From Heptranchias perlo (taxonomy: Eukaryota): a stretch of 64,000 nt of DNA. The first letter of the stretch is position 1; each line of letters opens with the position of its first letter. The stretch spans positions 5,146,001 through 5,210,000 of the forward strand of contig NC_090363.1 of the NCBI RefSeq assembly GCF_035084215.1. Direction: 5' to 3'. Both the position numbers and the translations under genes were made by a program. Under the pieces are notes generated by a model. The model made no database searches. It had not been told where the DNA came from and saw nothing but the letters and a program-made list of their open reading frames with translations. Below, one piece after another: positions 1,480-63,777 of the stretch.

Positions 1480-1936
1480 GTTGGTTACATGTGCTGCCCA
1501 CAATGACCGGAAATGTCGGTGTGGGGGGTGGGGAAAGAGGCGGGGCCCTGATGTGATTAGAAATTCAGGCCCAGAATCGACAACAAGATTGCTGGGTGTT
1601 TTTTTCCAAGTGGACACAGTATGAAATTCTCACTGCCCCGTGATACACTGATCTCAAATCCCAATGACGGCAATGAGTTGGTATTTTTGTATCTTCATGC
1701 TCTTCCCTTGGAGGACAGTACGATGTAGTGGCAGGATTCACAGGCTGGTTAACAGTCTGACAGGCCATGATGTGAATGCTCCTTCCTCGGCCGTAACTGT
1801 CTTTATACCATCCCATTGGGCGGTTAGTCCTATACGGCGGGAGGGATTTATGGGCTCCCACAGCCCATACAACGAGAGGAGGGAGACACACACACCGGGC
1901 ATGAGTATCCCGCTGGATGTCAGCCCAAAATTCAGA

Positions 1937-3063: not shown

Positions 3064-3210
3064 CTTGTTTCCGAAGCCCTGCCTGATGTGCTTCTGTCTC
3101 TGGTGCACGCCGTGGATCTGCTGGTGGTACCAGTCCCGTGCCCGCTCCACCATCTCCAGCCCGTGCAGGAGGGCATCGCGCTCTCTCTCCAGCTCTTTCA
3201 TCTGCTTCAA
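3064..3210 (-). CDS. SAPCD-family gene, coding exon 3 (LKQMKELERERDALLHGLEMVERARDWYHQQI...; Suppressor_APC domain)
   Basis: Acceptor ctcctcccag|TTG at 3210 and donor AAG|gtgagt at 3064; 147 bp, phase 0-0. Matches the SAPCD signature LKQMKELEQEKEVLLQGLEM..R.RDWY.QQ. Confidence 0.93.
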
Positions 3211-3544
3211 CTGGGAGGAGACAAAGGAAAAGAAAAGCACTGAATAATTCAGGCAGCTACCCCTGATGTGGAGAACGTGGGGCTGATTTATCCAGGCACG
3301 GAGCCTCGCCCACCGGGAGCACATATCAGGAGAATGAACGGGGAGTGTGCCTGCTGTCGCCTGATATACAGTCCCACCAGGAAGTCAGCCCTTATAAGCA
3401 AACATGGCATGTTATGTTGTAATTTCTTCTATTTATGAATGAAGAGGCTCCCAAGAGCTAAATGAATGATACAGAAAGAAAGAACTTGCAATTATATCAC
3501 AACCTCAGGATGTCCCAAAGTGCTTTACAGCCAATGAAGTTTAA

Positions 3545-37014: not shown

Positions 37015-37910
37015 TCATCTGATATTTACTCACCCTGCCCTAATCCCCTGCTCTCTATTGCAGGCAGTTTATTATTAAGTATATTTATTATTAATAATGT
37101 AATAGTTACTCACTCTGCGCCGTCCCTGCTCCCTAGTGCAGGACTGTTTATTAATTAAAAGTATATTATTAATAATCTGATATTTACTCACCCTGTGCTA
37201 AGTTCTAACTGTCTGTAGCAGTACTGTTTATTAATTAAAAGTGTTTTATATTATTAATAATCTGATATTTACTCACCCTGCCTTGATTCCCTGATCTCTA
37301 TTGCAGAACTGTTTATTAATTAAAAGTATTATTAATAATGATATTCACTCACTCTGTGCCAAGTCCCTGCTCTCTGTAGCAGGAATGGTTCTTAATTAAA
37401 AGTATATTATTAATAATATGATATTCACTCACTCTGTGCCAAGTTCCTGCTCTCTGTAGCAGGAATGGTTCTTAATTAAAAGTATATTATTAATAATATG
37501 ATATTCACTCACTCTGTGCCAAGTCCCTGCTCTCTATTGCAGGACTGTTTATTAATTAAAAGTATATTATTAATAATGATATTCACTCACTCTGTGCCAA
37601 GTCCCTGCTCTCTGTAGCAGGAATGGTTCTTAATTAAAAGTATATTAATAATTTGATATTCACTCACCCCGTTCCAAGTTCCTTCTGTCTGTCACAGGAC
37701 CATTTATTAATTAATAATCTGTCCCGATTTCCTGCTCTCTATTGCATGACTGTTTTATTGTTAAATATATTAATAATCTGACACTCATTCACTCTGTGCC
37801 AAGTTCTTGCTCCTTGATGCAGGACTGTTTGTTAATTAAAAGTATTTATATTATTAATAATCTGATAGTCACTCACCCTGTGCCCAGATCCTGCTGTCTG
37901 TTGCCGGGTT
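37015..37910. repeat. ~80-bp AT-rich tandem repeat derived from the SAPCD exon 1/intron 1 junction
   Basis: ACTCAC(C/T)CTG recurs at ~37028, 37108, 37186, 37271, 37347, 37427, 37507, 37585 and (variant) 37662; the last copy, at 37871, is the real donor. Confidence 0.85.
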
Positions 37911-38363
37911 GACCGTCCCCTTTCCCCCCGGGTCCCGGTGCTCGCCGCCGCCCGGAGGTGAGCGGTCGGGGCGGCGCTGCTCCTGCCCGGGTCCCGACCG
38001 CAGGCTCTGGGTCTCGGGCTCTTCGTGCAGCGCCGTCCTGATGCCGTCCAGCAGGCGGGGGAAGGTGAGCTGGCCGGAGGGCGCCGCTACTCGGCGGAGG
38101 CACGGCATCAGCCCGGCGGGTAACGCCGGCTCCCGGCTGCCCTCCTCCCGCCAGCGGCTCTCGATCTCCTGGACGTGAACCGAGCCCCGACCCTCCTGGT
38201 CGAGGATGTCGAAGAGGGTCCGCAGGCTGAGCTGGAAAGCGCGGGGGAGGCAGCGCCCCTCCTCCCGGGGCTGAGGCTGGAGCTCGGGGGGCTGGGGCTG
38301 GGGCTGGGGCTGGTGCTCGGGCTGTGCCGCCCGGCTCACGGTGCTCAGCCCCGGCGCTGCCAT
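37877..38363 (-). CDS. SAPCD-family gene (SAPCD2-like or full-length SAPCD1), coding exon 1
   Basis: ATG at 38363; LPRAFQLSLRTLFDILD..GRG.VH..EIESRW and LRRVAAPSGQLTFPRLL match the SAPCD2 N-terminal domain. Donor CAGG|gtgagt at 37877, phase 1; lies in a CpG island. The paralogue cannot be resolved by eye. Confidence 0.9.
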
Positions 38364-51510: not shown

Positions 51511-51712
51511 AATGATGATTCTAATGGTGATTGGCAAAAGAACCAAAGGTGGCTATTCGGCCACAGGGTGTTACATAGCTACCCTCGTCAACATTAGGGG
51601 CTCGGTCACCTACAATCTATAAAACCAAAGGCTCTTTTCAGATTCCCACTATGTCAACGTGAACGTGCTGTTAGAAAATCTTGTGCTTAGCCCGTCTTGG
51701 ATATTGGCGAGT

Positions 51713-51728
51713 GGCTCTGAAAAGAGCC
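51713..51728 (-). terminator. Histone 3' stem-loop of H2B (GGCTCTTTTCAGAGCC)
   Basis: Canonical 16-mer with a CCAAA flank, 36 nt after the stop, followed by a purine-rich HDE-like AAGACGGGCT. Confidence 0.95.
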
Positions 51729-51764
51729 TTTGGGTTGAATTTTAAAGCGGAATATCAAGATGTT

Positions 51765-52157
51765 TTATTTGCAGCTGGTGTATTTGGTAACCGCCTTAGT
51801 CCCTTCCGAGACGGCGTGTTTGGCCAGTTCTCCCGGCAGCAGGAGGCGAACGGAGGTCTGGATCTCCCTGGAGGAGATGGTGTGCCGCTTACTGTAATGG
51901 ATCAGGCGGGAAGCCTCGGAAGCGATGCGCTCGAAGATGTCGTTGACGAACGAGTTCATGACACTCATGGCCGAGAAAGAGATGCTGGTGTCGGGGTGCA
52001 CCTGCTTCAGCACTTTATAGATGTAGATGCTGTAAGTCCGCTTCCTGGCCTTTCTGCGCTTCTTCTCACCTTTCACCCGTTTCTTGGAGATCACTTTCTT
52101 TGTCCCCTTTTTTGGCCCTTTTTTTGGCGCTATGCCCTTTGACACTGGCTCCGGCAT
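51765..52157 (-). CDS. H2B: Histone H2B, divergent variant (130 aa)
   Basis: Intact histone fold ([13 protein letters not shown]...[23 protein letters not shown]), intronless, with stem-loop and octamer promoter. Confidence 0.97.
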
Positions 52158-52204
52158 CGCAGATGGACAATAAGACCTGTTTGGGCGAAAGTCTCCTCGA
52201 CGCG

Positions 52205-52310
52205 TTCTTTAATAGTGAGTCATATGCAAATGAGGAATCAGAAACTGACGCATTCCTATTGGTGAAGTGGTGAAGCAGTCATTGTGATTTCGAAACAATG
52301 GCCAATCAGG
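52205..52310. promoter_or_regulatory. H2B promoter: TATA-like element, octamer ATTTGCAT (52224-52231), TGACG, and two opposed CCAAT boxes (52258-52262, 52302-52306)
   Basis: Matches the layout of the vertebrate bidirectional H2A/H2B promoter. Confidence 0.85.
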
Positions 52311-52324
52311 ATTGCGAGCGGTAT

Positions 52325-53030
52325 TTTTTGTATGTTTCGGCCCCCTTCTATCAGAAGGGCGGGTTAGGGTGTAACTTTATTTTTAAAAGCAAATCAAAAC
52401 CAAATAATAAATGGAGTTAAATAATAATTTTATTGTTCTGGTCAAGGAAGCGTTCCAGTCCCCGCGGCACCCACCGGTCGCGGAAAACCTCAAGCGTACC
52501 CGGCAGACACCGCGTGCTCCTTCTCCAGGGCCACCCGGGAGCGGAGAATGCCGCGGAAGAGAGGCAGACAGTCGGAGCGACCGCCCCCACGGGCTGAGTC
52601 TAGCCTGGACCTGTAGATGGCCACTTTAAACAGGCCCAGGAGCAGATCCACAAAGACGTCCTCCGACTTGTCCGTCCCCCCCTCCTCACCGGGTGGCTAA
52701 AGATCAGGAGCTTGGGACTGAAATGCAGCCAGAACCTGAGGAGCAGCCCCTTTAAATAGTGGAACAGGGGCTGCAACTTCTCACACCCTGTGTAGATATG
52801 GAACACCATCTCATCCAGGCCACAGTAATTGCAGGCGGTCTGGGAGTCCGTGAAATGGCTCAAGAGTCTGTTTGTGGGGACTGCTCCATGCAACACTCTC
52901 CACCCCAGATCCCCAATGGCACAGGGGAGGACTCCCTCATAGAGAGCGCTCCACTGGGGACCCCCGACTCCGCCAGACGGCAAGATGGTATTGTTGCAGT
53001 TTCCAGGCAAGTTGCAAGCATGTGCGATGA
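52325..53030 (-). mobile_element. Tx1/L1-clade LINE 3' fragment (degraded ORF2 C-terminus plus 3' UTR)
   Basis: GDLGWRVLHGAVPTNRLL...CNYCG..E...HI...C zinc-knuckle (zf-RVT-like), frameshifted; the boundaries are approximate. Confidence 0.75.
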
Positions 53031-53176
53031 TCACCTGCTTTAACTGTCGGAGTGGATCATCCGCTAAGTTTCAGTAACAGTGCACACTGAGGAAAGGCTT
53101 CCAGAGGGGTGCAGCTTGAAAACAAAACTGTACAACAATTGCTCTGTTGCATGCTTGGTCAGTGCTGTAATACGTC

Positions 53177-53298
53177 TGACGAAGGGGATAATCTCCGAAA
53201 GCTTGTGATTTTAAAATAAATTTGTTGGACTATAACCTGGTGTTGTAAGATTCCTTACATTTGTCCACCCCAGTCCATCACCGGCATCTCCACATCAC
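53177..53298 (+). mobile_element. Penelope-like terminal fragment with a 10-bp TSD and hammerhead core
   Basis: GTAATACGTC at 53167-53176 and 53299-53308; core CTGACGA-AGGGGA-TAA-TCTCC-GAAA-GCTT; homologous to 23928-24148. Confidence 0.78.
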
Positions 53299-53379
53299 GT
53301 AATACGTCCAGTATCTATATGCTGATCCGGGGGGTGGGGATCAGTAAGGTGGACCAAGCAGCTTGATCTGGAAAGTGAT

Positions 53380-53865
53380 AGGGTGCAGAAAAGATTAAAA
53401 GATTTACTAGAATGGTTCCAGGGTTGGGGGACTTCATTTATGTGGATAGACTGGAGAAGCTGGGGTGGTTCTCCTTAGAGCAGAGAAGGTTGAGAGGAGA
53501 TTTGTTAGAGGTGTTCAAAATCATGACAGGTTTAGATAAAGTAAATAAAGAGAAACTGTCGAGAACCAGAGGGCACAAATTTAAGGTGATTGGCAAAAGA
53601 CCCAAAGACGACGTGAGAAAAAACTTTTTTACGCAGCGAGTAGTTATGATCTGGAATGTGCTGCCTGAAAGGGTGGAGGATGCAGATTCAATCGTGGCTT
53701 TCAAAAAGGAATTGGATGAATATTTGAAAAGAAAAAAATTGCAGGGCTACGGGGAAAGAGTGGGGGAATGGGACTAACTGGATTGCTCTTACAAAAATCC
53801 AGCATGGGTTCGATGGGTCGAATGACCTCCTTCTGTGCTGTATCAATTCTATGATTCTATGATTG
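53380..53865 (+). mobile_element. CR1 LINE 3' fragment
   Basis: RLEKLGWFSLEQRRLRGDL...FFTQRVVMIWN peptide and an (ATTCTATG)n tail. Confidence 0.9.
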
Positions 53866-54134
53866 ACAGTATGTTGAATTTATAGGGCATGCGACCTGCA
53901 TGCCCCAACACAGAGATTCAGAACAGTGTGAATGTATGAGCGTAAAGCATTGCCTGGGCACAGCACGGAGTTCGCATGACTGTTAAGAAGCTCGCCGATT
54001 TTGGGTTCAGTTAATTGTACAAGTTGCATATTAAAGCTGCACCATATCATTCAGTTGGATGTCAGGTACCCTGAAAGCTGTCACAGCTCATTTTTCCTAT
54101 GGCAATTGACAGTGCCACCATTATTTAATGGAAT

Positions 54135-54656
54135 TTAATTTACATCCAAGTACTTTTTAAATGAGTTGAGGGTTTCTGCCTCTACCACCCCTTCAGGCAG
54201 TGAGTTCCAGACTCCCGCCACCCTCTGGGTGAAAGAAAATCTCCTCAGCTCCCCTCTAATCCTTCTACAAATTACTTTGAATCTATGCCCCCTGGTCACT
54301 GGTTCCTCTGCTAAGGGAAATAGGTCCTCCCTATCCACTCTATCTAGTCCCGTCATAATTTTAAGTACCTCAATTAAATCTCCCCTCAGTCTTCTTTGTT
54401 CTAAAGAAAACAACCCCAGCCTTTCCAATCTTTTCTCATAGCTAAAATTCTCCAGTCCTGGCAACATCCTCGTAAATCTCCTCTGTACCCTCTCTAGTGC
54501 AATCACATCTTTCATGTAATATGGTGACCAGAACTGTACGCAGAACTCAAGCTGTGGCCTAACCAATGTTTTATACAGTTCCAGCATAACCTCCCTGCTG
54601 TTATATTCTATGCCTTGGCTAATAAAGGAAAGTATCCCGTATGCCTTTTTAACCAC
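54135..54656 (-). mobile_element. CR1 LINE ORF2 fragment
   Basis: LYKTLVRPQLEFCVQFWSP...LERVQRRFTRMLPGL peptide. Confidence 0.92.
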
Positions 54657-55287
54657 CTACTGTTTAATAATAATATAACAGAATAAAGTTAAATGTCAGG
54701 GATGACAGCATGGTTTTAGTGAGTTTATGCTCAAAATCTATATTAAGTGTATCCATGATAGGCCTTTAGTATTAATGCCCGTGTAATGATGATGGGGGCA
54801 TTCATCAGTGATACTCTGGAGTCACTTTTGAGACAAGCCAACGATGATTAGTTGTCACTATCGGTTGGTCTTCTTTCTTCTTAACTTAGCTAAACTTAAC
54901 ACATACTGTAACTTTCTCTGGGGAATGATGTACTGTACTTGGTGCTTAGAAATGTATGTTATTAACACATTCTATGTTATTATGACATTCTTAACCTATT
55001 GCTTAATGTTTATAATTATTTTTCCTAACCTTCCCCGAATGAAGATTCTCCGTGATTTTCAATTTTTGGTTAATGAAGCCTTACCTTAACCCCCATAAAG
55101 TGAATCCCACTTGGTGATTCAACCAAAGTCCAATTTAGTTATAAAGACCATTTTCTAAGGTGTCACCCAAGTAACCTGACATATCTTAGAAAGTTGCAAG
55201 TCAGTCCGTGTGAACCTCAACAGGATAATTTCATATTTTGATGAGTCAACTCATCACGCAATACTCTGGGTCAGAATATTGACCCAT

Positions 55288-57324
55288 GGGGCTCGATTTT
55301 AGGAGCGTGTTTCCGGCGGGTTCCCAGCGGGGTGGCCCCGAAAATCCCGATCTCCGGTCACGTGACCGGATCGCGACGAAATCCCGGCCACTTCCGGGTA
55401 CCGCGCTGACGTGCGGGGCTGCGCGCGCAAGCCCCGCTGGTGGGAATCCCGCAGGCAATTAAAGCCAGCGGGGTTCCACTTGAGAGTACTTAACTTGCTC
55501 GTTGTGGTCAGTTAATGAGCTGAAGCAGCTGTCAAAAGAGGAAGTGTGGGATTTTAGGTTCAAGGCAGTGAGTTTCCCACACTGGGGGAAACAGTCTCCC
55601 TCCAACCAGGCGTGTTGCAGCCAGCAGCCTGTAGCAGGTGCCAAGGTGCGCTCCACGGGGGAGAGCCCTCACCCACGCAGGAGGCCACCGCGTCACATAG
55701 GGCAACCCCTGCCCTCCACCACCCCCCGCCAAGCCAGAGGACAGACCGACACGAAACCGCAGCCCCAGTCCGAGGAACCACACACCTACCCTGCACAACC
55801 CCTCAGACCAACACCTGCCAGTTGGGTGGTGTGTGGACACCCTCGGAGGACGAAGAGCATGACCAGCACCAGCAGCCTTGCAGTCCACGCCGTCCGCCTC
55901 AGAGATGTGGATCCCCCCAACACGGTGTTGTTGCACGCCCACCTGCACAGCAGGAGGGAGGGCTACCGCAGAGAGAGACGCGTCGCAGAGGGCACTACCC
56001 TCGCCACAGGGTCCACAGACCGAGGCGCAGCTCCCCGGACCTCTCCGAGCAGCAGTGCACAGGGAGGCGCAGATTCGCTCGACATGTAGTCGTGGAGATC
56101 TGCAGCCTCTTTCATGCCGAGCTGCTCCTGGCTGGCCCCAGCACCAACTGCTTACCTGTCGCTGGCAAAGTCACCACTGCCCACCACACCTTCTCCTCCG
56201 CATCCGTCCAGGGTGCAGCCGGCTACACCGCCGATGTCTCTCAGTCGTCTGCGCGGACGAGCCCTGCAAATACACCTGCACCTACTCTGCAGTAACACGA
56301 TGGGTGGCATCAGTGGTGGGTCCTCATAGTGATACCCAGGAGCGGGCATTATTGGACACAACGGACAGGATTCGCGGAGACATGGCAGTGGTGGTGTCAA
56401 TATAATGTGTGCTGTTTGTTGCTCTGAAATTCAATATGGGTAACACCCATGACAAACCCTCAGACACCCTTGTGCACCCCCTTCATGCTGACGAGACGTT
56501 TGCCTTACGCTGCCTACTGCACATATGTGATGCATGCCCTGTGGCTGCAGCACAGGTGGTGGCAGGTTGAGTGAGGCTGGCCGTGAGGGAGATGCACGAG
56601 AGGGTGAGTATGGGATGGAGCCATGAGATTGTATGAGGATTGGGTTGCGTGTTAGTGGCAGGATGAGTACTGGTGAGGTGAGTAGGTGGAGGTAAGATGA
56701 GGATGGGGTGTGAGTGGGTATGAAGGGTGATGTGACATAATAGTGTTGGCGGTGCCGAAGGAGATGTGGGGTGGGGGCAGTGTTGTGGCAGACGGAGTGT
56801 AGGGGAAAGACTTCGTGTTCTCACTGTGGCGGACCTACTGCGGTCATTGCAGCGCCTCCTGCACTGTATGCAGGTGGGCCATATGTTGGTGGCGCAGGTG
56901 ACCCCCTCTGCCACCTCGAGCCAGGCCTTCTTGGTGGCAGAGGCAGGCCGCTTCCTCCCGCCCGCCGGGGGGAAGAACTGTGTCCTCCCCCTCCTCCTCA
57001 CCCCATCTGATGATACCTGGGGTGAGGCATCATTAAACTGGGAGCAGCCTTCCCCCTGGGCTGCTCCATGCTGCAATTTGTCCCATTGGTTGCAGCATCT
57101 GTCAGTGGAGGACTGCCCCTTTAACTAGAGAGCTTCCAGCTGACAGATCGTACTGCGCACGCGCAGGCCAGCGCCGTGGACCCCGGAGGAGCAGGTAATT
57201 GGATCCGATTAGTGGATTGCCTGCTACGATCGCGCGGGAAACCCACTAATTTCGCCGTCCGCGTTTTCGACGCTCCCGGAGGACCACCCGCTGGGAACCC
57301 GCAGGCCTGCTAAATTCGAGCCCC
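55288..57324. mobile_element. Internally deleted PIF/Harbinger DNA transposon
   Basis: TIRs GGGGCTCGATTTTAG / CTAAATTCGAGCCCC with a subterminal GCGGGTTCCCAGCGGG repeat. A degenerate transposase N-terminus is on + (~55980-56270) and a Myb/SANT-like ORF on - (~56820-57076, KKAWLEVAE...CIQCRRRCND). Confidence 0.82.
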
Positions 57325-57709
57325 ATGGTTCCTAATTCTTATCCAAGATACAAAGCCACTTGACCCAGAGTAAGAGTCCTTTGGTCAATACCATTTTTTG
57401 TATGTGGTGAACTGTCATAACGCACAGAATCCTTCTCCCGCTACCAGTAGTCATTTGGACCCGGTGCCGATTTGGAAAACCGTATTCCCGATTTCCTTGT
57501 CAATTTTCTCCCAATTCTCGCCGGCAGAATCCTTGGATAATTTCTCGGTTTACGAATTTCAGTTAGAACCCCATCCTCCGAAATAGTTACGGAATTTTCC
57601 AATGCGCGCGTTAATTTTAGCACAATAACTTATTTCCCTTGTTCAGCCTGTCGAATAGATATGCGACAATGTGCATTGTACTGACAGCCCTCTTGTTGAT
57701 TGAATGGGT

Positions 57710-57725
57710 GGCTCTTAAAAGAGCC
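57710..57725 (-). terminator. Histone 3' stem-loop of H4 (GGCTCTTTTAAGAGCC)
   Basis: Canonical 16-mer with an ACCCA flank and an HDE-like CAAGAGGGCTG downstream. Confidence 0.95.
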
Positions 57726-57756
57726 TTTTTTGTTCAGATTGTACTAATTTTTATTT

Positions 57757-58134
<378 letters not shown>

Positions 58135-58138
58135 CTAG

Positions 58139-58170
58139 TTTTATACAGTGCTTGCGGACCTGGTTGAGAA
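58139..58170 (-). promoter_or_regulatory. H4 promoter: site II-like TTCTCAACCAGGTCCGC plus TATAAAA
   Basis: The minus strand reads TTCTCAACCAGGTCCGCAAGCACTGTATAAAA, matching the H4 subtype-specific element. Confidence 0.85.
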
Positions 58171-58729
58171 CGAATAAATGGGCGGAGTCCGGAAGAAAAT
58201 GACAATTTCTGACTTTTCCCCAAGTAGCCGATATTGGACAGTACCCATGGGTGCAATTATAAAAAAAATGGTCTATCGATTTAGTCTGCGACTTCCTTGT
58301 TTTCGATACAGCTTTGTCTCTTTGAGCTGTGTTTTAATGAAGGCCTTCAAGTTTTTGTGTCTCAATATATGTTTCCTTAATTCCAGTAGACTGGTTTTCC
58401 CACTGGAACACTATTGCCTTTGTGAGGTGCTTTCACTTATCTGGGTTTTCACAAGTTACAGGGATGGGGGAGAATGCCTTCAGTCTGGATGAATGCAGTC
58501 CAGACACCTCTTTCATAGGCCCAGCTGAGTGTTGTGATTAGGCAGAAAGGCTTAATGTAATAATGACTGATAGATGGCTGCTCTCTGTGTTGTCCTGGCT
58601 CTCATATTTGAGCACCAGTGAAACCACTACTTCAGGAAGTAGCTGCAGGGGCTTCAGAATGCAAGGGACGCTGTATGTGCATTGTCCACCAGCAATTTTA
58701 CCATCACAATACTTAATCAGACGGGCAAA

Positions 58730-59465
58730 TAGCAACAACAACTTGCATTTATATAGCGCCTTTAACATAGTAAAACGTCCCAAGGCGCTTCACAGGAGCA
58801 ATTATCAAACAAAATTTCACACCGAGCCACATAAGGAGATATTAGGACAGGTGACCAAAAGCTTGATTAAAGAGGTAGGTTTTAAGGAGGGTCTTAAAGG
58901 AGGAGAGAGAGGTGGAGAGGTGAATAGGTTTAGGGAGGGAATTCCAGAGCTTAGAGCCTAGGCAGCTGAAGGCACGGCCATCAATGGTGGAGCGATTAAA
59001 ATTGGGGATGCGCAAGAGGCCAGAGTTGGAGGAGTGCAGAGATCTCGGAGGGTTGTAAGGCTGGAGGAGGTTACAGAGATAGGGAGGGGGTGAGGCCACG
59101 GAGGGATTTGAAAACAAGGATGGGAATTTTAAAATCGAAGCGATGTAGGTCAGCGAGCACAGGGGTGATGGGATTAGAGTAGACAGGGCTGATGGCCGGC
59201 GCGGACACGATGGGCCGAAGGGCCTCTATCCGTGCTGTATAACTCTATGACTCTATGACTCCATGACTCTAACAGGACTTGTTGCAAGTTAGGATAGGGG
59301 CAGCAGAGTTTTGGATGAGCTCAAGTTTATGGAGGGTAGAAGATGGGAGGCTGGCCAGGAGAGCATTGGAATAGTCAAGTTTAGATGTAACAAATACATG
59401 GATGAAGGTTTCAGCAGCGGATGAACTGAGGCAGGGGTGGAGTCGGGTGAGGTTACGGAGGTGAA
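58730..59465 (-). mobile_element. L2-clade LINE fragment with a short nested CR1 tail (59175-59270)
   Basis: FIHVFVTSKLDYSNALL..LP.....KLELIQNSAA peptide; a second fragment lies at 59705-59990. Confidence 0.85.
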
Positions 59466-60589
59466 AGCCACAATAAAAAGCCACAAAGCCAATATACAAA
59501 CAATACTAAGAATCACTCCTAATAGGAATGTTGCTCCATATTTCCAGTTGCCTGTGATTACATTATGGTTTATGATACTAATCTACCTTTGCTGGATAGG
59601 AAGTTTCATGGATGCAACATTAATATTTTCCTATCGATTTCTCTGTAATTATTTTTCATTGAGCCTCTTAGGTTAATAAACAGCATATTTATTATTTTCC
59701 TTTTAAATTGAAGGTATTAGAGAACCAGAAGCCAATGTAAGTCAGCAAGGGCAGGGGCGATTTGTGAGTGGGAGCTGGTGTTGGATAGGAAACGGGCAGC
59801 AGAGTTTTGGATGAGCTGAAGTTTACCAAGGGTGAAGGATGGGAGACCGGCCAGGAGAGCATTGGAATAGCTGTGTCTGAAGGTGACAAAGGCATGGATG
59901 AGGGTTTCAGCAGCAAATGGTCTGAGGCAGGGGCGGAGGCAGGCGATGTTATAGAGGTGGAAGTAGGTGGTATTCGTGATGGAGAGTAAGGGAAGAAAAC
60001 CAGGGGTTCATTTTCACCTTATTGCCCAGGTGTAAAACTGGCATTGTGGATCGGCCACCCATTAAAGAAACCACCCGATTTTCGTTCCGTTGAACTTAAT
60101 GTTACGAAAATCGGATGGTTTCTATAACGGGCAGCCATGCCAGTTTTACGACCAGGCAGTAAGTTGAAAATTAATATTTATGAAGTGGCAAAGTATGAAA
60201 TTTCTTCCAAGTCCATGGAGGATCATGAATTCTTTTCCTAATCAGTTTTTTTTTTAACTTGTCACAAGCCTCATTAGGTTTGTTACACTGAGCGTTCGAC
60301 CATTCTGTCTGGGGAGATCAAGACTGCCCAGATTTCATTCTTCAGTGCTCAGGAGTAGAGCTTGGCAGGGTGGAAGCTCTATTGGCGGAAATTGGAATGA
60401 AAGCTTTTTCTTTCATTAATATCCAAAGATCTGTACTGGAGACCGGTTTGTGACCAAATTTTAACCTGGTCTTATGTAGTCCTGAAAGTCTATGATAAAT
60501 CTAAAATTGCATTAGCTGTGGAATTTCTCCAGTCTCCTATATCTTCTGAACATTGGTGATTTTGACAAAATGGCTACAAAACAGAAAAT

Positions 60590-61545
60590 ATAGGGTAGGA
60601 ATTAAGGGACATTTCTTAGACTGGCAGAAAATGGGAAATGGTGTCCTACAGGGATCTGTGCCATATAATATATATATATGTAAAATATTTGGACTCAGAA
60701 ATTGAAGGTATAGTGTCAAAATTTGCAAATGATACCAAACTGGGTGTATGGCTAATAATGTGAGGAACTGCACCAAAATACAAGAAGATAAAACCAGGCT
60801 TGCAGAGTGGGCAGATAGATGGCAAATGAAATTCAATATGGCAGTGTGAGGTGGTTCATTTTGGTAGGAGGAATAAGGAGACCACTTATTCCTGGGAATA
60901 CAGATGCAGTACACAAATCGCTACCAGTATTAGCACACCTTGAGAAGGCCATGGAAAATGCAAATTACTGGCATTCATCTCTAGAGAAATAGAATAAAAA
61001 AAACAGAGAGGTCATGTTAAATGTATATAGAATCTTGGTTGGACCATAGGTGGACAGGTCTGGTCTCTATATTACAAGAAGCTTATTGAAGCAGTGGAAA
61101 AACTGCAGAAAAGCTTTACATGCATGTTTCCAGAATTGAGAGGATGGAACTCTGAGAAAAGATTGCGTGGGCTGGGGCTCTTTTCTCTGGAAAAGAGACT
61201 AAGAGGAGACCTGATAGAGGTTTTTAAAAATTATGTAGGTGCTCGATAGGGTGAATGTGGAGAAATGGTTTCCACTTGCGAGTGAGTCCAGAACAAGGGG
61301 GCATACATATAAAAATGATCAAATAAGGAATTTAGGAGTAATAATTTTTACATAGAGTGGTGAGAATGTTGAAGCAGATAGTATTGATGCATTTAAGGAG
61401 AGGCTTGATCCATACATGAGGGAGATGGGAATGGAGGGGTAGGATAGGAAGGGGCAATAAAGTGGGAGGAGAGTTGTGTGGACTAGAAACATCGACATAG
61501 ACCAGTTGGGACGAATAGTCTGTTTCTGTGATGTGGATTCTATGT
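60590..61545 (+). mobile_element. Old degraded CR1 LINE fragment
   Basis: Remnants of GV.QGSV, KFA(D)DTKLG, WQMKFN and LGLFSLEK plus a CR1 3' UTR. Confidence 0.8.
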
Positions 61546-61990
61546 TGACCAAGTCTCGCTCTCCGAGTTTTGTGTTACCGTGGCCTTGGTTATTAAGCTA
61601 TATAAAAGTCCTTTGCATTAATAATCAATCGATTTGCTGCTGAAACGTTGAACATTGCTCACCCGTTGCGAATAAAAGTGTCAATCTCACTCAAAGCCTT
61701 TCGCTCTGGGAATAGTTTGGACGAAGAAATAAATAAACCCTGAGCGAGGTGTGATTACCCCCCCCCCCGCCCCCAATGTGACCCTTTGGTTCAATCGGTG
61801 TAAAGACAGAAGTGAAAGTTTGCACGGTGCGTGTCACCGATGCACCCTCCTGGGAGGGTTGAAGGTTTCGGAGATCTTGCAACCAAATTGGATGCTTTTG
61901 ACAGACAGAGAAAGGCAAATAATAAACCCCTGGGGCCGCGCGCCGCTCGGCCACGCGCCGGGTCCCCGGGGGAGGAGTTGACTCTGAAAC

Positions 61991-62011
61991 GTCCGCCTTG
62001 AGATTTTAAAT
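61991..62011 (+). promoter_or_regulatory. Putative H1-variant core promoter: GTCCGC (H4-box-like) + 8 nt + TTTAAAT
   Basis: Same motif and spacing as the neighbouring H4 promoter (GTCCGC-8 nt-TATAAAA). Confidence 0.5.
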
Positions 62012-62112
62012 GGCGCCGCCGCCGCCGCCCCCTTCGGAGAATCGGTCACCGCGGCGTGGAGCGCGGACGAGCCGGAGGGAAAAGGTGCTGAACGTCGCGC
62101 CGTCACAACCAA

Positions 62113-62802
62113 ATGGGCTGGGGCGATCCGGCCGGAGACCCCTCCCGAGGCAAGAAGGCGAGGAAGAGGAGGAGCCCGCCCCGGGCGCGGCAGGCGGGCG
62201 GGCGCGCCTCCGCCACCCTGGCCGGTCAGATCATGGAGGCGGTGGCGTCTTCCAAGGAGCGCCGCGGCCTGTCGCTGGTCGCCGTCAAGAAGGTGCTGTC
62301 GGCCGCCGGCTTCGACGTGTCCAAGAACAACTCGCGGGTGAACCAGACGGTGAGGAGCCTGGTGACCAGCGGCTCGCTGCTGCAAACGGCGGGCACCGGG
62401 GCCAACGGCTCCTTCAAAGTCAACCGGCGGCGGTACGTGAAGACCAAGAGCCGCCTGGCGGCCGGCAGGAGACGGGCCGCCTCCCGGGGCCGCTACCAGA
62501 GGAAGGCGGCGGCCGCCAAGAGGAGCAGGAGGAAAAGGAGTCCCGCCAGGAAGAGCAAGCCGAGGATTCAGAGGAAGAACGGGAGAGCCGGCGGCGGTCC
62601 TGGCCAGAGAAGGGTCAGGATCAAGGGTGGCGGTGGTGTCCGGAAGGCGGTGAGGAGGGGAGTCGGGCGGCCCAGGAGAGCGGCCAAGGAGCTGCCGCCA
62701 GCGGACGGTCAACTCCGCAAGCAAGAAGCCCAGCAATACCCAAGTGATGAAACGGCCAAGGCGGATAACCGCGAGGGCGGAATCCGAGCGGAAACAATCT
62801 GA
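62113..62802 (+). CDS. H1: Linker histone H1 variant with an arginine-rich (protamine-like) tail, 229 aa
   Basis: Winged-helix domain (IMEAVASSKERRGLSLVAVKKVL...FDVSKNNSRV...LLQTAGTGANGSFKVN); in-frame stop upstream at 62089; intronless; stem-loop 28 nt after the stop. Confidence 0.93.
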   Translation: MGWGDPAGDPSRGKKARKRRSPPRARQAGGRASATLAGQIMEAVASSKERRGLSLVAVKKVLSAAGFDVSKNNSRVNQTVRSLVTSGSLLQTAGTGANGSFKVNRRRYVKTKSRLAAGRRRAASRGRYQRKAAAAKRSRRKRSPARKSKPRIQRKNGRAGGGPGQRRVRIKGGGGVRKAVRRGVGRPRRAAKELPPADGQLRKQEAQQYPSDETAKADNREGGIRAETI

Positions 62803-62830
62803 GCAAAAATATTGTGGGAACAAAAAAAAA

Positions 62831-62846
62831 GGCTCTTTTCAGAGCC
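62831..62846 (+). terminator. Histone 3' stem-loop of H1 (GGCTCTTTTCAGAGCC)
   Basis: Canonical 16-mer, ACCA flank, and purine-rich AGAAAAAGA downstream. Confidence 0.95.
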
Positions 62847-63777
62847 ACCAAAGTCCTTCAGAAAAAGATTGTTCCAAAAAGATACAATAGATATCCATTT
62901 TAAAATAAAGCTGCGGACGTGGTTTCTATTCAACGTTCTCGACGTTTTGAAGAAAAACCTGAGAATCTTGACTTGTCCTCCAGCAACTTACGAACACAAA
63001 ACACTCGAGAGCCTTTCGAACAGAAGTGGCTGCGGTCATCGTGAAACATCTTACAGACTGAAATGAGTTAGGCAAAAATATTATCAATAGAAATTATTAG
63101 TGAATAATGAAACGGTTAAGAGTTGGAATTTTGCTCCCACCTCAGATACATTGCAATGAGAAGTCACTAATCTTCCAGCACAGGAGGAGGCCATTCGGCC
63201 CATCGTGCTTGTGCCGGCTCTTTGAAAGAGCTATCCAATTAGTCCCACTCCCCCTGCTCTTTCCCCCATAGCCCTGCAAATTTGTCCTTTTCAGGTATAT
63301 ATCCAATTCCCCTTTTGAAAGTTATTATTGAATCTGCTTCCACCACCCTCAGGGAGTGCAGTATGTTTAAGGAAAGCAAGAAGTTCTGAGAACAAATTCA
63401 GCGCCCGTAGGATGGGGAGTCACGCGGTCCTCACCATTTTTCAGCATCACTCGTTAAGTCAAGTATTGTAAGCTAATCTTTTTTGGCCATCCTGTTATCA
63501 CTTCCCTTTGATCTCATTTCATAAGGCGATTTAGTTGCAATTTTATTCATTGTTTTTTTCTCCCTCAAAATTTGAATAACGCTGGAATTAACGCAACTGT
63601 TTGAAGTCTGGCAGCTTGTTTCCTTCTCTCTCTGGCGCGTCCCCTCTAAGCTCACCTCAGCTAGGTCTGCACAAAATGTATAACAACAAGATGTGAAAAT
63701 TAGCATTTTTCATTGACTGAGGTTTGATTTTGGGTGCTGATAATGAGTGGTAGAGGGAAAGGTGGTAAGGGACTGGG

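Follow-up and report, generated by a model that had tools for sequence, protein, structure and literature searches.

A conserved cluster of variant replication-type histone genes in the major histocompatibility complex class III region of Heptranchias perlo, with a plausible male germline role

Introduction

The question raised by this locus is whether a group of divergent histone genes in a cartilaginous fish supplies the parts of a specialised nucleosome and, if so, in which cells. The stretch of DNA analysed (hereafter, the window) comprises 64,000 nucleotides of Heptranchias perlo (contig NC_090363.1, here G000:C42:5,146,001-5,210,000; genome size 3.25 Gb), and it carries genes for an H2B, an H4 and an H1 near its right end. 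An earlier reading of the letters (the original prediction) had regarded these three genes as a mini-cluster and possibly a co-evolved set building a germline nucleosome. As described below, they stand at one edge of a variant-histone gene cluster lying within the major histocompatibility complex (MHC), in its class III region; this cluster is real, conserved and, as a system, apparently undescribed.

Divergence of the window histones from the ordinary histones of the species

Intact intronless open reading frames (ORFs) were found for a variant H2B (51765-52157, minus strand, 130 aa), a variant H4 (57757-58068, minus strand, 103 aa) and an arginine-rich H1 (62113-62802, plus strand, 229 aa), each with the predicted stem-loop at its 3′ end. 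The ordinary histones of Heptranchias perlo are encoded in large arrays on other contigs (hereafter, the main arrays). The window H4 differs from the canonical protein by S1T, V65I, A69S, K79R and M84L. Among the H4 matches in the genome, 148 of the 150 scored share one lower score, and all of the lower-scoring matches that were translated (28/28) proved canonical. For H2B, 24 of 124 aligned codons differ from the main-array majority protein; in human numbering, its changes are G53S, S56F, K57S, A81I, N84S, A97S and S124C, with K120 retained, and the protein ends S-C-K, as do members of an elasmobranch H2B clade (see below). The window H1 has 17.9% Arg and 9.2% Lys, with a globular domain at about residues 34-104, a basic tail of 88 residues (27 Arg, 11 Lys) and an acidic end (8 Asp/Glu in the last 37 residues) that is kept in this H1 and its five counterparts. 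In the main arrays the Arg content of H1 was 2.5-3.6% in 11 of 11 full-length copies and 2.8% in one truncated copy. Because the ordinary H4 is canonical, the main-array H2B matches are 78-82% identical to the window H2B and the main-array H1s are lysine-rich, the window genes are true variants within this genome. The predicted departure of each histone from its canonical protein is thus confirmed for H4, H2B and H1, and the idea that these residues are simply those of the ordinary somatic histones of the species is largely refuted.

The three stem-loops have the consensus 6-bp/4-nt form and lie 28-36 nt past the stop codon, at 51713-51728 (H2B, minus strand, 36 nt after the stop, with a purine-rich stretch downstream), 57710-57725 (H4, minus strand) and 62831-62846 (H1, plus strand), with folding z-scores of −4.45, −3.25 and −3.10, respectively. 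Two of them reached the gathering score of the Rfam Histone3 family (RF00032; 39.4 bits for H4 and 40.6 bits for H1), while the H2B stem-loop was missing from the Rfam Histone3 matches of the window, although its consensus is present in the sequence. Intronless ORF, 3′ stem-loop and downstream purine-rich element, the marks of replication-dependent histone genes, are accordingly present; moreover, an AATAAA occurs about 100 nt past the H1 stop. A half-decayed histone-type stem-loop at 51630-51645 (plus strand) faces the 3′ end of the H2B gene with no ORF behind it, and was rejected as a working element for not folding (z +1.1).

The subtype promoter elements predicted for H2B and H4 were likewise found, the motifs being assigned by likeness to known elements. 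The H2B promoter (52208-52262, minus strand) has a TATA-like box (52208-52214), an octamer (52224-52231) and a CCAAT (52258-52262), and the H4 promoter (58139-58185, minus strand) has a TATA box (58139-58145), a TCA-N4-GGTCC H4 subtype element (58156-58167) and a GC box (58180-58185). The H1 promoter (61978-62011, plus strand) has a TTG-N-TC-N6-CGTCC element (61978-61999) and a TATA-like box (62004-62011), with neither an AAACACA box nor a CCAAT within 220 nt. The CGTCC core is present in 13 of the 14 H1 promoters of the cluster, and the whole element in most; CGTCCGC is also found in main-array H1 promoters, hence the element is not cluster-specific. An alternative ORF of 245 aa, starting at 62010, was discarded, having no Pfam match and a start inside the TATA-like box.

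Extent and composition of the cluster

When 454 kb around the window were examined, the cluster was found to span 267 kb in two lobes (C42:5,010,535-5,277,074), with 15 stem-loops in C42:5.010-5.063 Mb and 16 in 5.198-5.277 Mb. The mini-cluster of three is therefore an artefact of the window edge, the trio being the border of this larger array. Intact ORFs precede 27 of the 31 stem-loops (14 H1, 5 H2B, 3 H4, 3 H2A and 2 H3), and the other four follow relics (an H2A, an H4, an H1 and a bare loop); furthermore, an H1-like frame near 5,221,100 has no matching stem-loop. None of the 13 core-histone ORFs encodes a canonical protein. In particular, the three H4s carry S1T/V65I/A69S/K79R/M84L, V65I/A69S and T54V/A69S, respectively, both H3s carry Q125H, and all 14 H1s are enriched in arginine (7-18%, against the low main-array values). 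In several of the genes, a poly(A) signal follows the stem-loop.

Genome-wide searches were made with exact patterns, by which copies with other changes are missed (e.g. a satellite H2B with Ser84, below). All four matches to the Ser69-H4 pattern lay in the cluster, one of them being a relic; all four to the His125-H3 pattern lay on C42 (two in the cluster and two in the satellite); and four of the five to the Ser84-H2B pattern lay in the cluster, the fifth being a broken fragment on C18. The satellite is a triplet at ~6.75 Mb (C42:6,748,790-6,756,130; L104, L105) of H3(+), H2B(+) and H3(−) with stem-loops, with Q125H in both H3s and Ser84 in the H2B; in the sawfish, H3, H2B and H3 occur at a comparable offset, the H2B there lying on the opposite strand.

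Regarding the other members, the cluster H2As (C42:5,044,418; 5,230,957; 5,239,243) are closest to H2A.X in the fold and retain His38, Gly99 and the penultimate Tyr, but the SQ(E/D)Y C-terminal motif of H2A.X is absent from them; one of them is identical on 13 contigs and has a skate counterpart. One H1 subtype (C42:5,048,893; 5,062,507; 5,229,882; 5,261,251) has a strongly altered globular domain and a long tree branch, with an acidic run after the domain in three of the four. The H4 relic just right of the window (C42:5,210,560-5,210,790) contains stops, has its 5′ end replaced by sequence resembling a long interspersed element (LINE), and has I65, S69 and L84 in common with the window H4 (85% DNA identity). 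Finally, the stem-loop at C42:5,269,175 is preceded by a short basic ORF, which was considered as a protamine-like gene and turned out to be the tail of a frameshifted H1 relic.

Genomic location and synteny

The order at the locus is HSP70-LSM2-[histones]-VARS1-SAPCD-[histones], which corresponds to MHC class III. Four HSP70 ORFs and LSM2 exons precede the first lobe, and VARS1 exons and SAPCD lie between the lobes; these genes were assigned by characteristic motifs, and the placement is based on HSP70, LSM2, VARS1, SAPCD and published tables. All 43 MHC class I matches fell on other small contigs, none placing C42; the search for MHC class II gave no match, and none of 49 bromodomain matches was on C42. 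The SAPCD gene (3076-38363, minus strand) has its first coding exon near 37869-38363 and its APC-binding-domain exon at 3076-3216, extends to the left of the window, and is SAPCD1 by position.

The predicted synteny with SAPCD was borne out, gene order and strand matching in sawfish and white shark. The sawfish MHC chromosome (chr34) is reported to carry HSP70s, smx5 (LSM2), H2B(−), H1(−), H4(−), H2B(+), H3(+), H2A(−), H2B(−), H1(−), vars1(+), SAPCD(−), H4(−), H2B(+) and more (PMC10751288, Verissimo et al. 2023), which are the order and strands found here, with fewer H1s. Between smx5 and vars1 on chr19 of the white shark, the same source gives 12 genes without names, 351-1,138 bp long (PMC10751288); their strands match the first 12 of the 13 left-lobe ORFs, and a 675-bp gene fits the 224-aa protein P0004. 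Unnamed short genes occupy the corresponding place in the catshark (NC_052158.1), and the H3, H2A, H2B and H1 variants are matched by catshark proteins whose accessions are nearly consecutive. Between ABHD16A and LSM2, no histone-sized gene was found in lungfish, and no histone gene is named in reedfish.

Other features of the window were also recorded. Between H2B and H4, a ~2-kb element (55286-57326) with 16-bp terminal inverted repeats (one mismatch) is likely a DNA transposon, and LINE fragments lie at 53412-53777 and 54135-54587. A marginal Rfam match to the CPEB3 ribozyme (1730-1804, minus strand, 35.7 bits vs. a cut-off of 35) falls within a SAPCD intron.

Differing ages of the window genes

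The three window genes do not share one history. Positional counterparts in sawfish and white shark exist for the H4 alone, as 312-bp minus-strand genes right of SAPCD. The H1 lies in a duplicated segment (61827-62868, plus strand) with an inverted copy at G000:C42:5013068-5014123 (98.2% over 1,056 bp), and it differs from its left-lobe twin by four synonymous changes, no replacement change and one in-frame 6-nt indel; to judge from this comparison, it is a recent copy of the left-lobe gene. The H2B subtype has its only close match in a sawshark (89% identity) and is absent at the corresponding sawfish position. Because the H4 alone is positional, the H1 is a recent copy and the H2B is matched only in the sawshark, the trio joins genes of different ages, and its grouping comes from the window edge. 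The predicted co-evolution of these three genes as a set thus found no support; the unit is the cluster as a whole.

Conservation and selection

The window H4 protein is identical on six public contigs, including an inferred white-shark contig that carries the counterparts P0004 (H1) and P0152 (H2B). Moreover, the H4 with I65/S69 was found on 12 contigs, the H4 with V54/S69 on 23, the H3 with H125 on 16 and one H2A on 13; the second H2A queried had no identical entry in the sequence collection. Identical cluster-type H4, H3 and H2A proteins occur in catsharks, bamboo shark and whale shark, and one H4 (V54/S69) occurs in skate.

Replacement (dN) and synonymous (dS) divergence was measured by Nei-Gojobori counts against main-array copies of the same genome (32 copies for H4, 5 for H2B) or against paralogues. 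For H4, dS was 0.81 and dN 0.025 (dN/dS ~0.03), part of this dS possibly predating the variant; for H2B, dS was 0.80 and dN 0.164 against the main array, and 0.54 and 0.061 against its paralogue. Compared with one another, the three variant H4s have diverged at 51-60% of their synonymous sites while showing only 3-6 replacements.

In a tree of 35 H2B sequences, 17 H2Bs from sharks, sawfish and skate formed one clade with the window gene (support 98/92; 95/92 on the fold only, with the bootstrap not settled). A further H2B subtype conserved in sharks, whose N-terminus is distinct and which is encoded outside C42, grouped P0121, P0160 and P0094 of Heterodontus, Heptranchias and Cetorhinus (99/96). 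In a tree of 60 H1 globular domains, the window H1 grouped with counterparts of four galeomorph sharks (SH-aLRT 87.6, bootstrap 94), and 12 of the 14 cluster H1s fell in one clade with ray and two chimaera H1s (94.4/99), the remaining two grouping with bony-vertebrate H1s; at least five H1 subtypes persist separately. The sequences of both trees were hand-picked from the best matches, with uneven sampling. Overall, the genes are distinct from canonical histones, kept in orthologues and under purifying selection, and these comparisons support their being functional, conserved variants in a cartilaginous fish.

Neither a dN/dS near 1 nor a lack of syntenic orthologues, which would be expected of decaying orphan copies, was thus encountered; that the three window genes are such copies is largely refuted and has a very small probability, since the H4 is identical in another shark lineage, the H2B and H1 have counterparts in the sawshark and in four other shark species, respectively, and the H1 is covered by contigs of sequencing runs (see below), even if H4, H2A and H1 relics lie nearby, the window H1 is a recent duplicate and the H2B subtype is missing at the sawfish position.

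Expression and the germline reading

In contigs of three runs from one sample, guessed to be RNA, the H1 was covered at 62071-62808 with no differences, including a match at the site distinguishing it from its twin, and the contigs extend past the H1 stem-loop; positions 61900-62070 had no cover in the same runs. This suggests that the H1 is transcribed in some tissue. For the H2B region, a search of sequencing runs listed no RNA data set, an outcome that speaks neither for nor against transcription.

A role in the male germline is plausible by analogy, from H2B Asn84Ser, H4 Ala69Ser and the arginine-rich H1s. Ser84 is present in four of the five cluster H2Bs and in seven of the 120 top H2B matches, all seven being elasmobranch variants, and Ala69Ser is fixed in all cluster H4s. 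In human TSH2B, the equivalent change (Ser85) is reported as the only one that alters the crystal structure, with loss of a water-bridged contact to H4 Arg78 (PMC3976059). In the testis H4t of Oikopleura, A69S is one of three changes and the gene lies in a male-specific cluster (PMC3156773).

On this basis, we consider it somewhat more probable than the reverse that the cluster, with variants of every class and conserved as a whole, is active in dividing germ cells of males and builds nucleosomes that are easily dismantled. Because the genes have stem-loops and subtype promoters, synthesis would be coupled to replication, as described for H3.4 (PMC13396413); deposition would likewise follow replication and stem-loop processing would occur as for mammalian H3.4, H2B.1 and H1.6, and the variants would be loaded in dividing spermatogonia or pre-meiotic cells. 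There, as in the human TSH2B structure, H2B Asn84Ser would remove the contact to H4 Arg78, while H4 K79R (the residue next to Arg78), M84L and A69S, together with H2B A81I, may retune the same H2B-H4 contact region, and the arginine-rich H1s with acidic ends may alter linker binding. The resulting nucleosomes would be easier to strip ahead of a protamine-type packaging of sperm DNA; sharks do have protamines.

Several observations weigh against a germline role of this kind. If the runs covering the H1, whose RNA status is a guess, came from somatic tissue, strict germline expression would be wrong. N84S and A69S are both small changes of one residue; ordinary H4 has Ser69 and Leu84 in yeast and Thr1 in fly, so that these residues are perhaps merely tolerated. 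A bird accession has the same His125 H3 sequence, some cluster H1 paralogue pairs reach dN/dS of 0.6-0.9, and four relics lie inside the cluster. In lamniform sharks (white and basking; P0139-P0157), copies of the variant H2B are scattered across many chromosomes, and many of them have private substitutions. Furthermore, TSH2B nucleosomes are described as about as stable as canonical ones, the octamer alone being unstable (PMC3976059), and divergent Oikopleura histones are also expressed outside the testis (PMC3156773).

The alternative that survives best is that the cluster is functional and stage-specific but serves oocytes, embryos at an early stage or some somatic lineage, for example blood, immune or non-dividing cells, with its MHC location reflecting shared regulation or chance. 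It fits all the conservation evidence equally well, and the closeness of the H2A variant to H2A.X, even without the SQ motif, is in keeping with it. So are the poly(A) signals and the contigs running past the H1 stem-loop, as in the polyadenylated forms of non-dividing cells (PMC8015243), and H2B.1 itself is also reported in oocytes (PMC8857922). However, the arginine enrichment of every cluster H1 points to the sperm line, two residues match testis variants (H2B N84S and H4 A69S), and Oikopleura isoforms with multiple changes are commonly male-specific (PMC3156773); we therefore rate this alternative as unlikely, though a serious contender.

Considerably less probable is an old, isolated locus that was not homogenised along with the main arrays, is expressed at a low level in S phase everywhere, and has accumulated tolerated, near-equivalent substitutions. 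The standard replication-type promoters and stem-loops would agree with this, as would the conservative core changes (one residue in H3, two to five in H4) and the globular domains of the cluster H1s, which group more closely with somatic H1 of bony vertebrates than the main-array H1 of the shark does. Nevertheless, each of the three H4 variants is kept letter for letter across species despite the large synonymous differences among them, and drift would not fix distinct proteins; nor does the separate maintenance of the H1 subtypes fit it.

Comparison with known systems

One of the closest parallels to the shark cluster is offered by the male-specific clusters of Oikopleura dioica, which are likewise reported to have all five classes as variants, with stem-loops on at least some genes and A69S in H4t (PMC3156773). 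They differ in that testis expression and sperm peptides are documented there, and in that V21I and L22M of H4t are absent from the shark H4s (PMC3156773). The shark set, for its part, has been conserved over an old vertebrate lineage and includes three variants of H4.

Among mammals, H2B.1/TSH2B (H2BC1), H2A.1, H1.6/H1t and H3.4 are also stem-loop-bearing, cluster-encoded variants (PMC3976059, PMC8857922, PMC8015243, PMC13396413), although they are single genes among canonical ones, and the shark cluster has no canonical gene. The window H2B shares Asn84Ser and Ile at position 41 with TSH2B. The divergent pairing of H2B.1 with an H2A.1 gene in HIST1 has no equivalent here, no H2A partner being found upstream of the window H2B, and the H2B locus lies in MHC class III, between LSM2 and ABHD16A, rather than in HIST1. 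Four variants of H2B, with H2B.1 among the ones described, are reported as mammalian in origin, and H3.4 as eutherian (PMC8857922, PMC8015243, PMC13396413). For the likeness between the shark and mammalian H2Bs, convergence is more likely than orthology.

Human H4.7/H4G (H4C7) is likewise a vertebrate H4 variant gene within a histone cluster, but it is described as confined to hominids and truncated, with 85% identity and a doubtful status in normal cells (PMC8015243, PMC9526256). The shark H4s, in contrast, are full length with 95-98% identity, and they do not vary between species. As for the window H1, it was compared by composition alone with the H1-derived protamine-like sperm proteins, which have a winged-helix H1 core and an arginine-enriched tail. 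Both traits are shared by the window H1, in which Arg makes up 18%, SP motifs are few and the acidic end is conserved; typical protamine-like proteins are more basic.

Significance

No paper describing a variant-histone cluster in sharks was found in searches aimed at shark histone variants or clusters, which did not extend to subscription journals and older work on dogfish sperm proteins; other searches gave only papers of a general kind. The available text of the Squalomix preprint mentions only large canonical-type histone clusters, the main text of PMC10751288 does not mention histones (0 occurrences), nor does PMC3466250, PMC13052469 mentions them once, and the NCBI labels for these genes are only 'histone-like'. 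H4 variants are reported to be infrequent, and the human one doubtful (PMC8015243, PMC9526256). Three H4 variants invariant across shark and ray lineages would be an exception that specialists would not expect.

Sharks and rays split ~250-300 million years ago. In its most ambitious form, the reading would be of a second histone system residing in MHC class III since before that split, with H1 roots in chimaeras: a complete variant nucleosome serving the germline (H4, H3, H2A.X-like H2A and H2B, with several H1s rich in arginine), containing the first deeply conserved vertebrate H4 variants, with H2B and H4 co-adapted where they touch and converging on the TH2B of mammals and the H4t of tunicates. 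We hold this form to be possible, if somewhat short of probable.

Should expression prove ubiquitous, the finding would be reduced to an unusual conserved locus; the zonation of the catshark testis by germ-cell stage has been described (PMC13052469). With an all-variant cluster, it becomes testable whether whole nucleosomes, beyond single histones, specialise. Moreover, the repeated arrival at H2B Asn84Ser and H4 Ala69Ser would, if true, point to a small set of residues tuning the disassembly of the germ-cell nucleosome.

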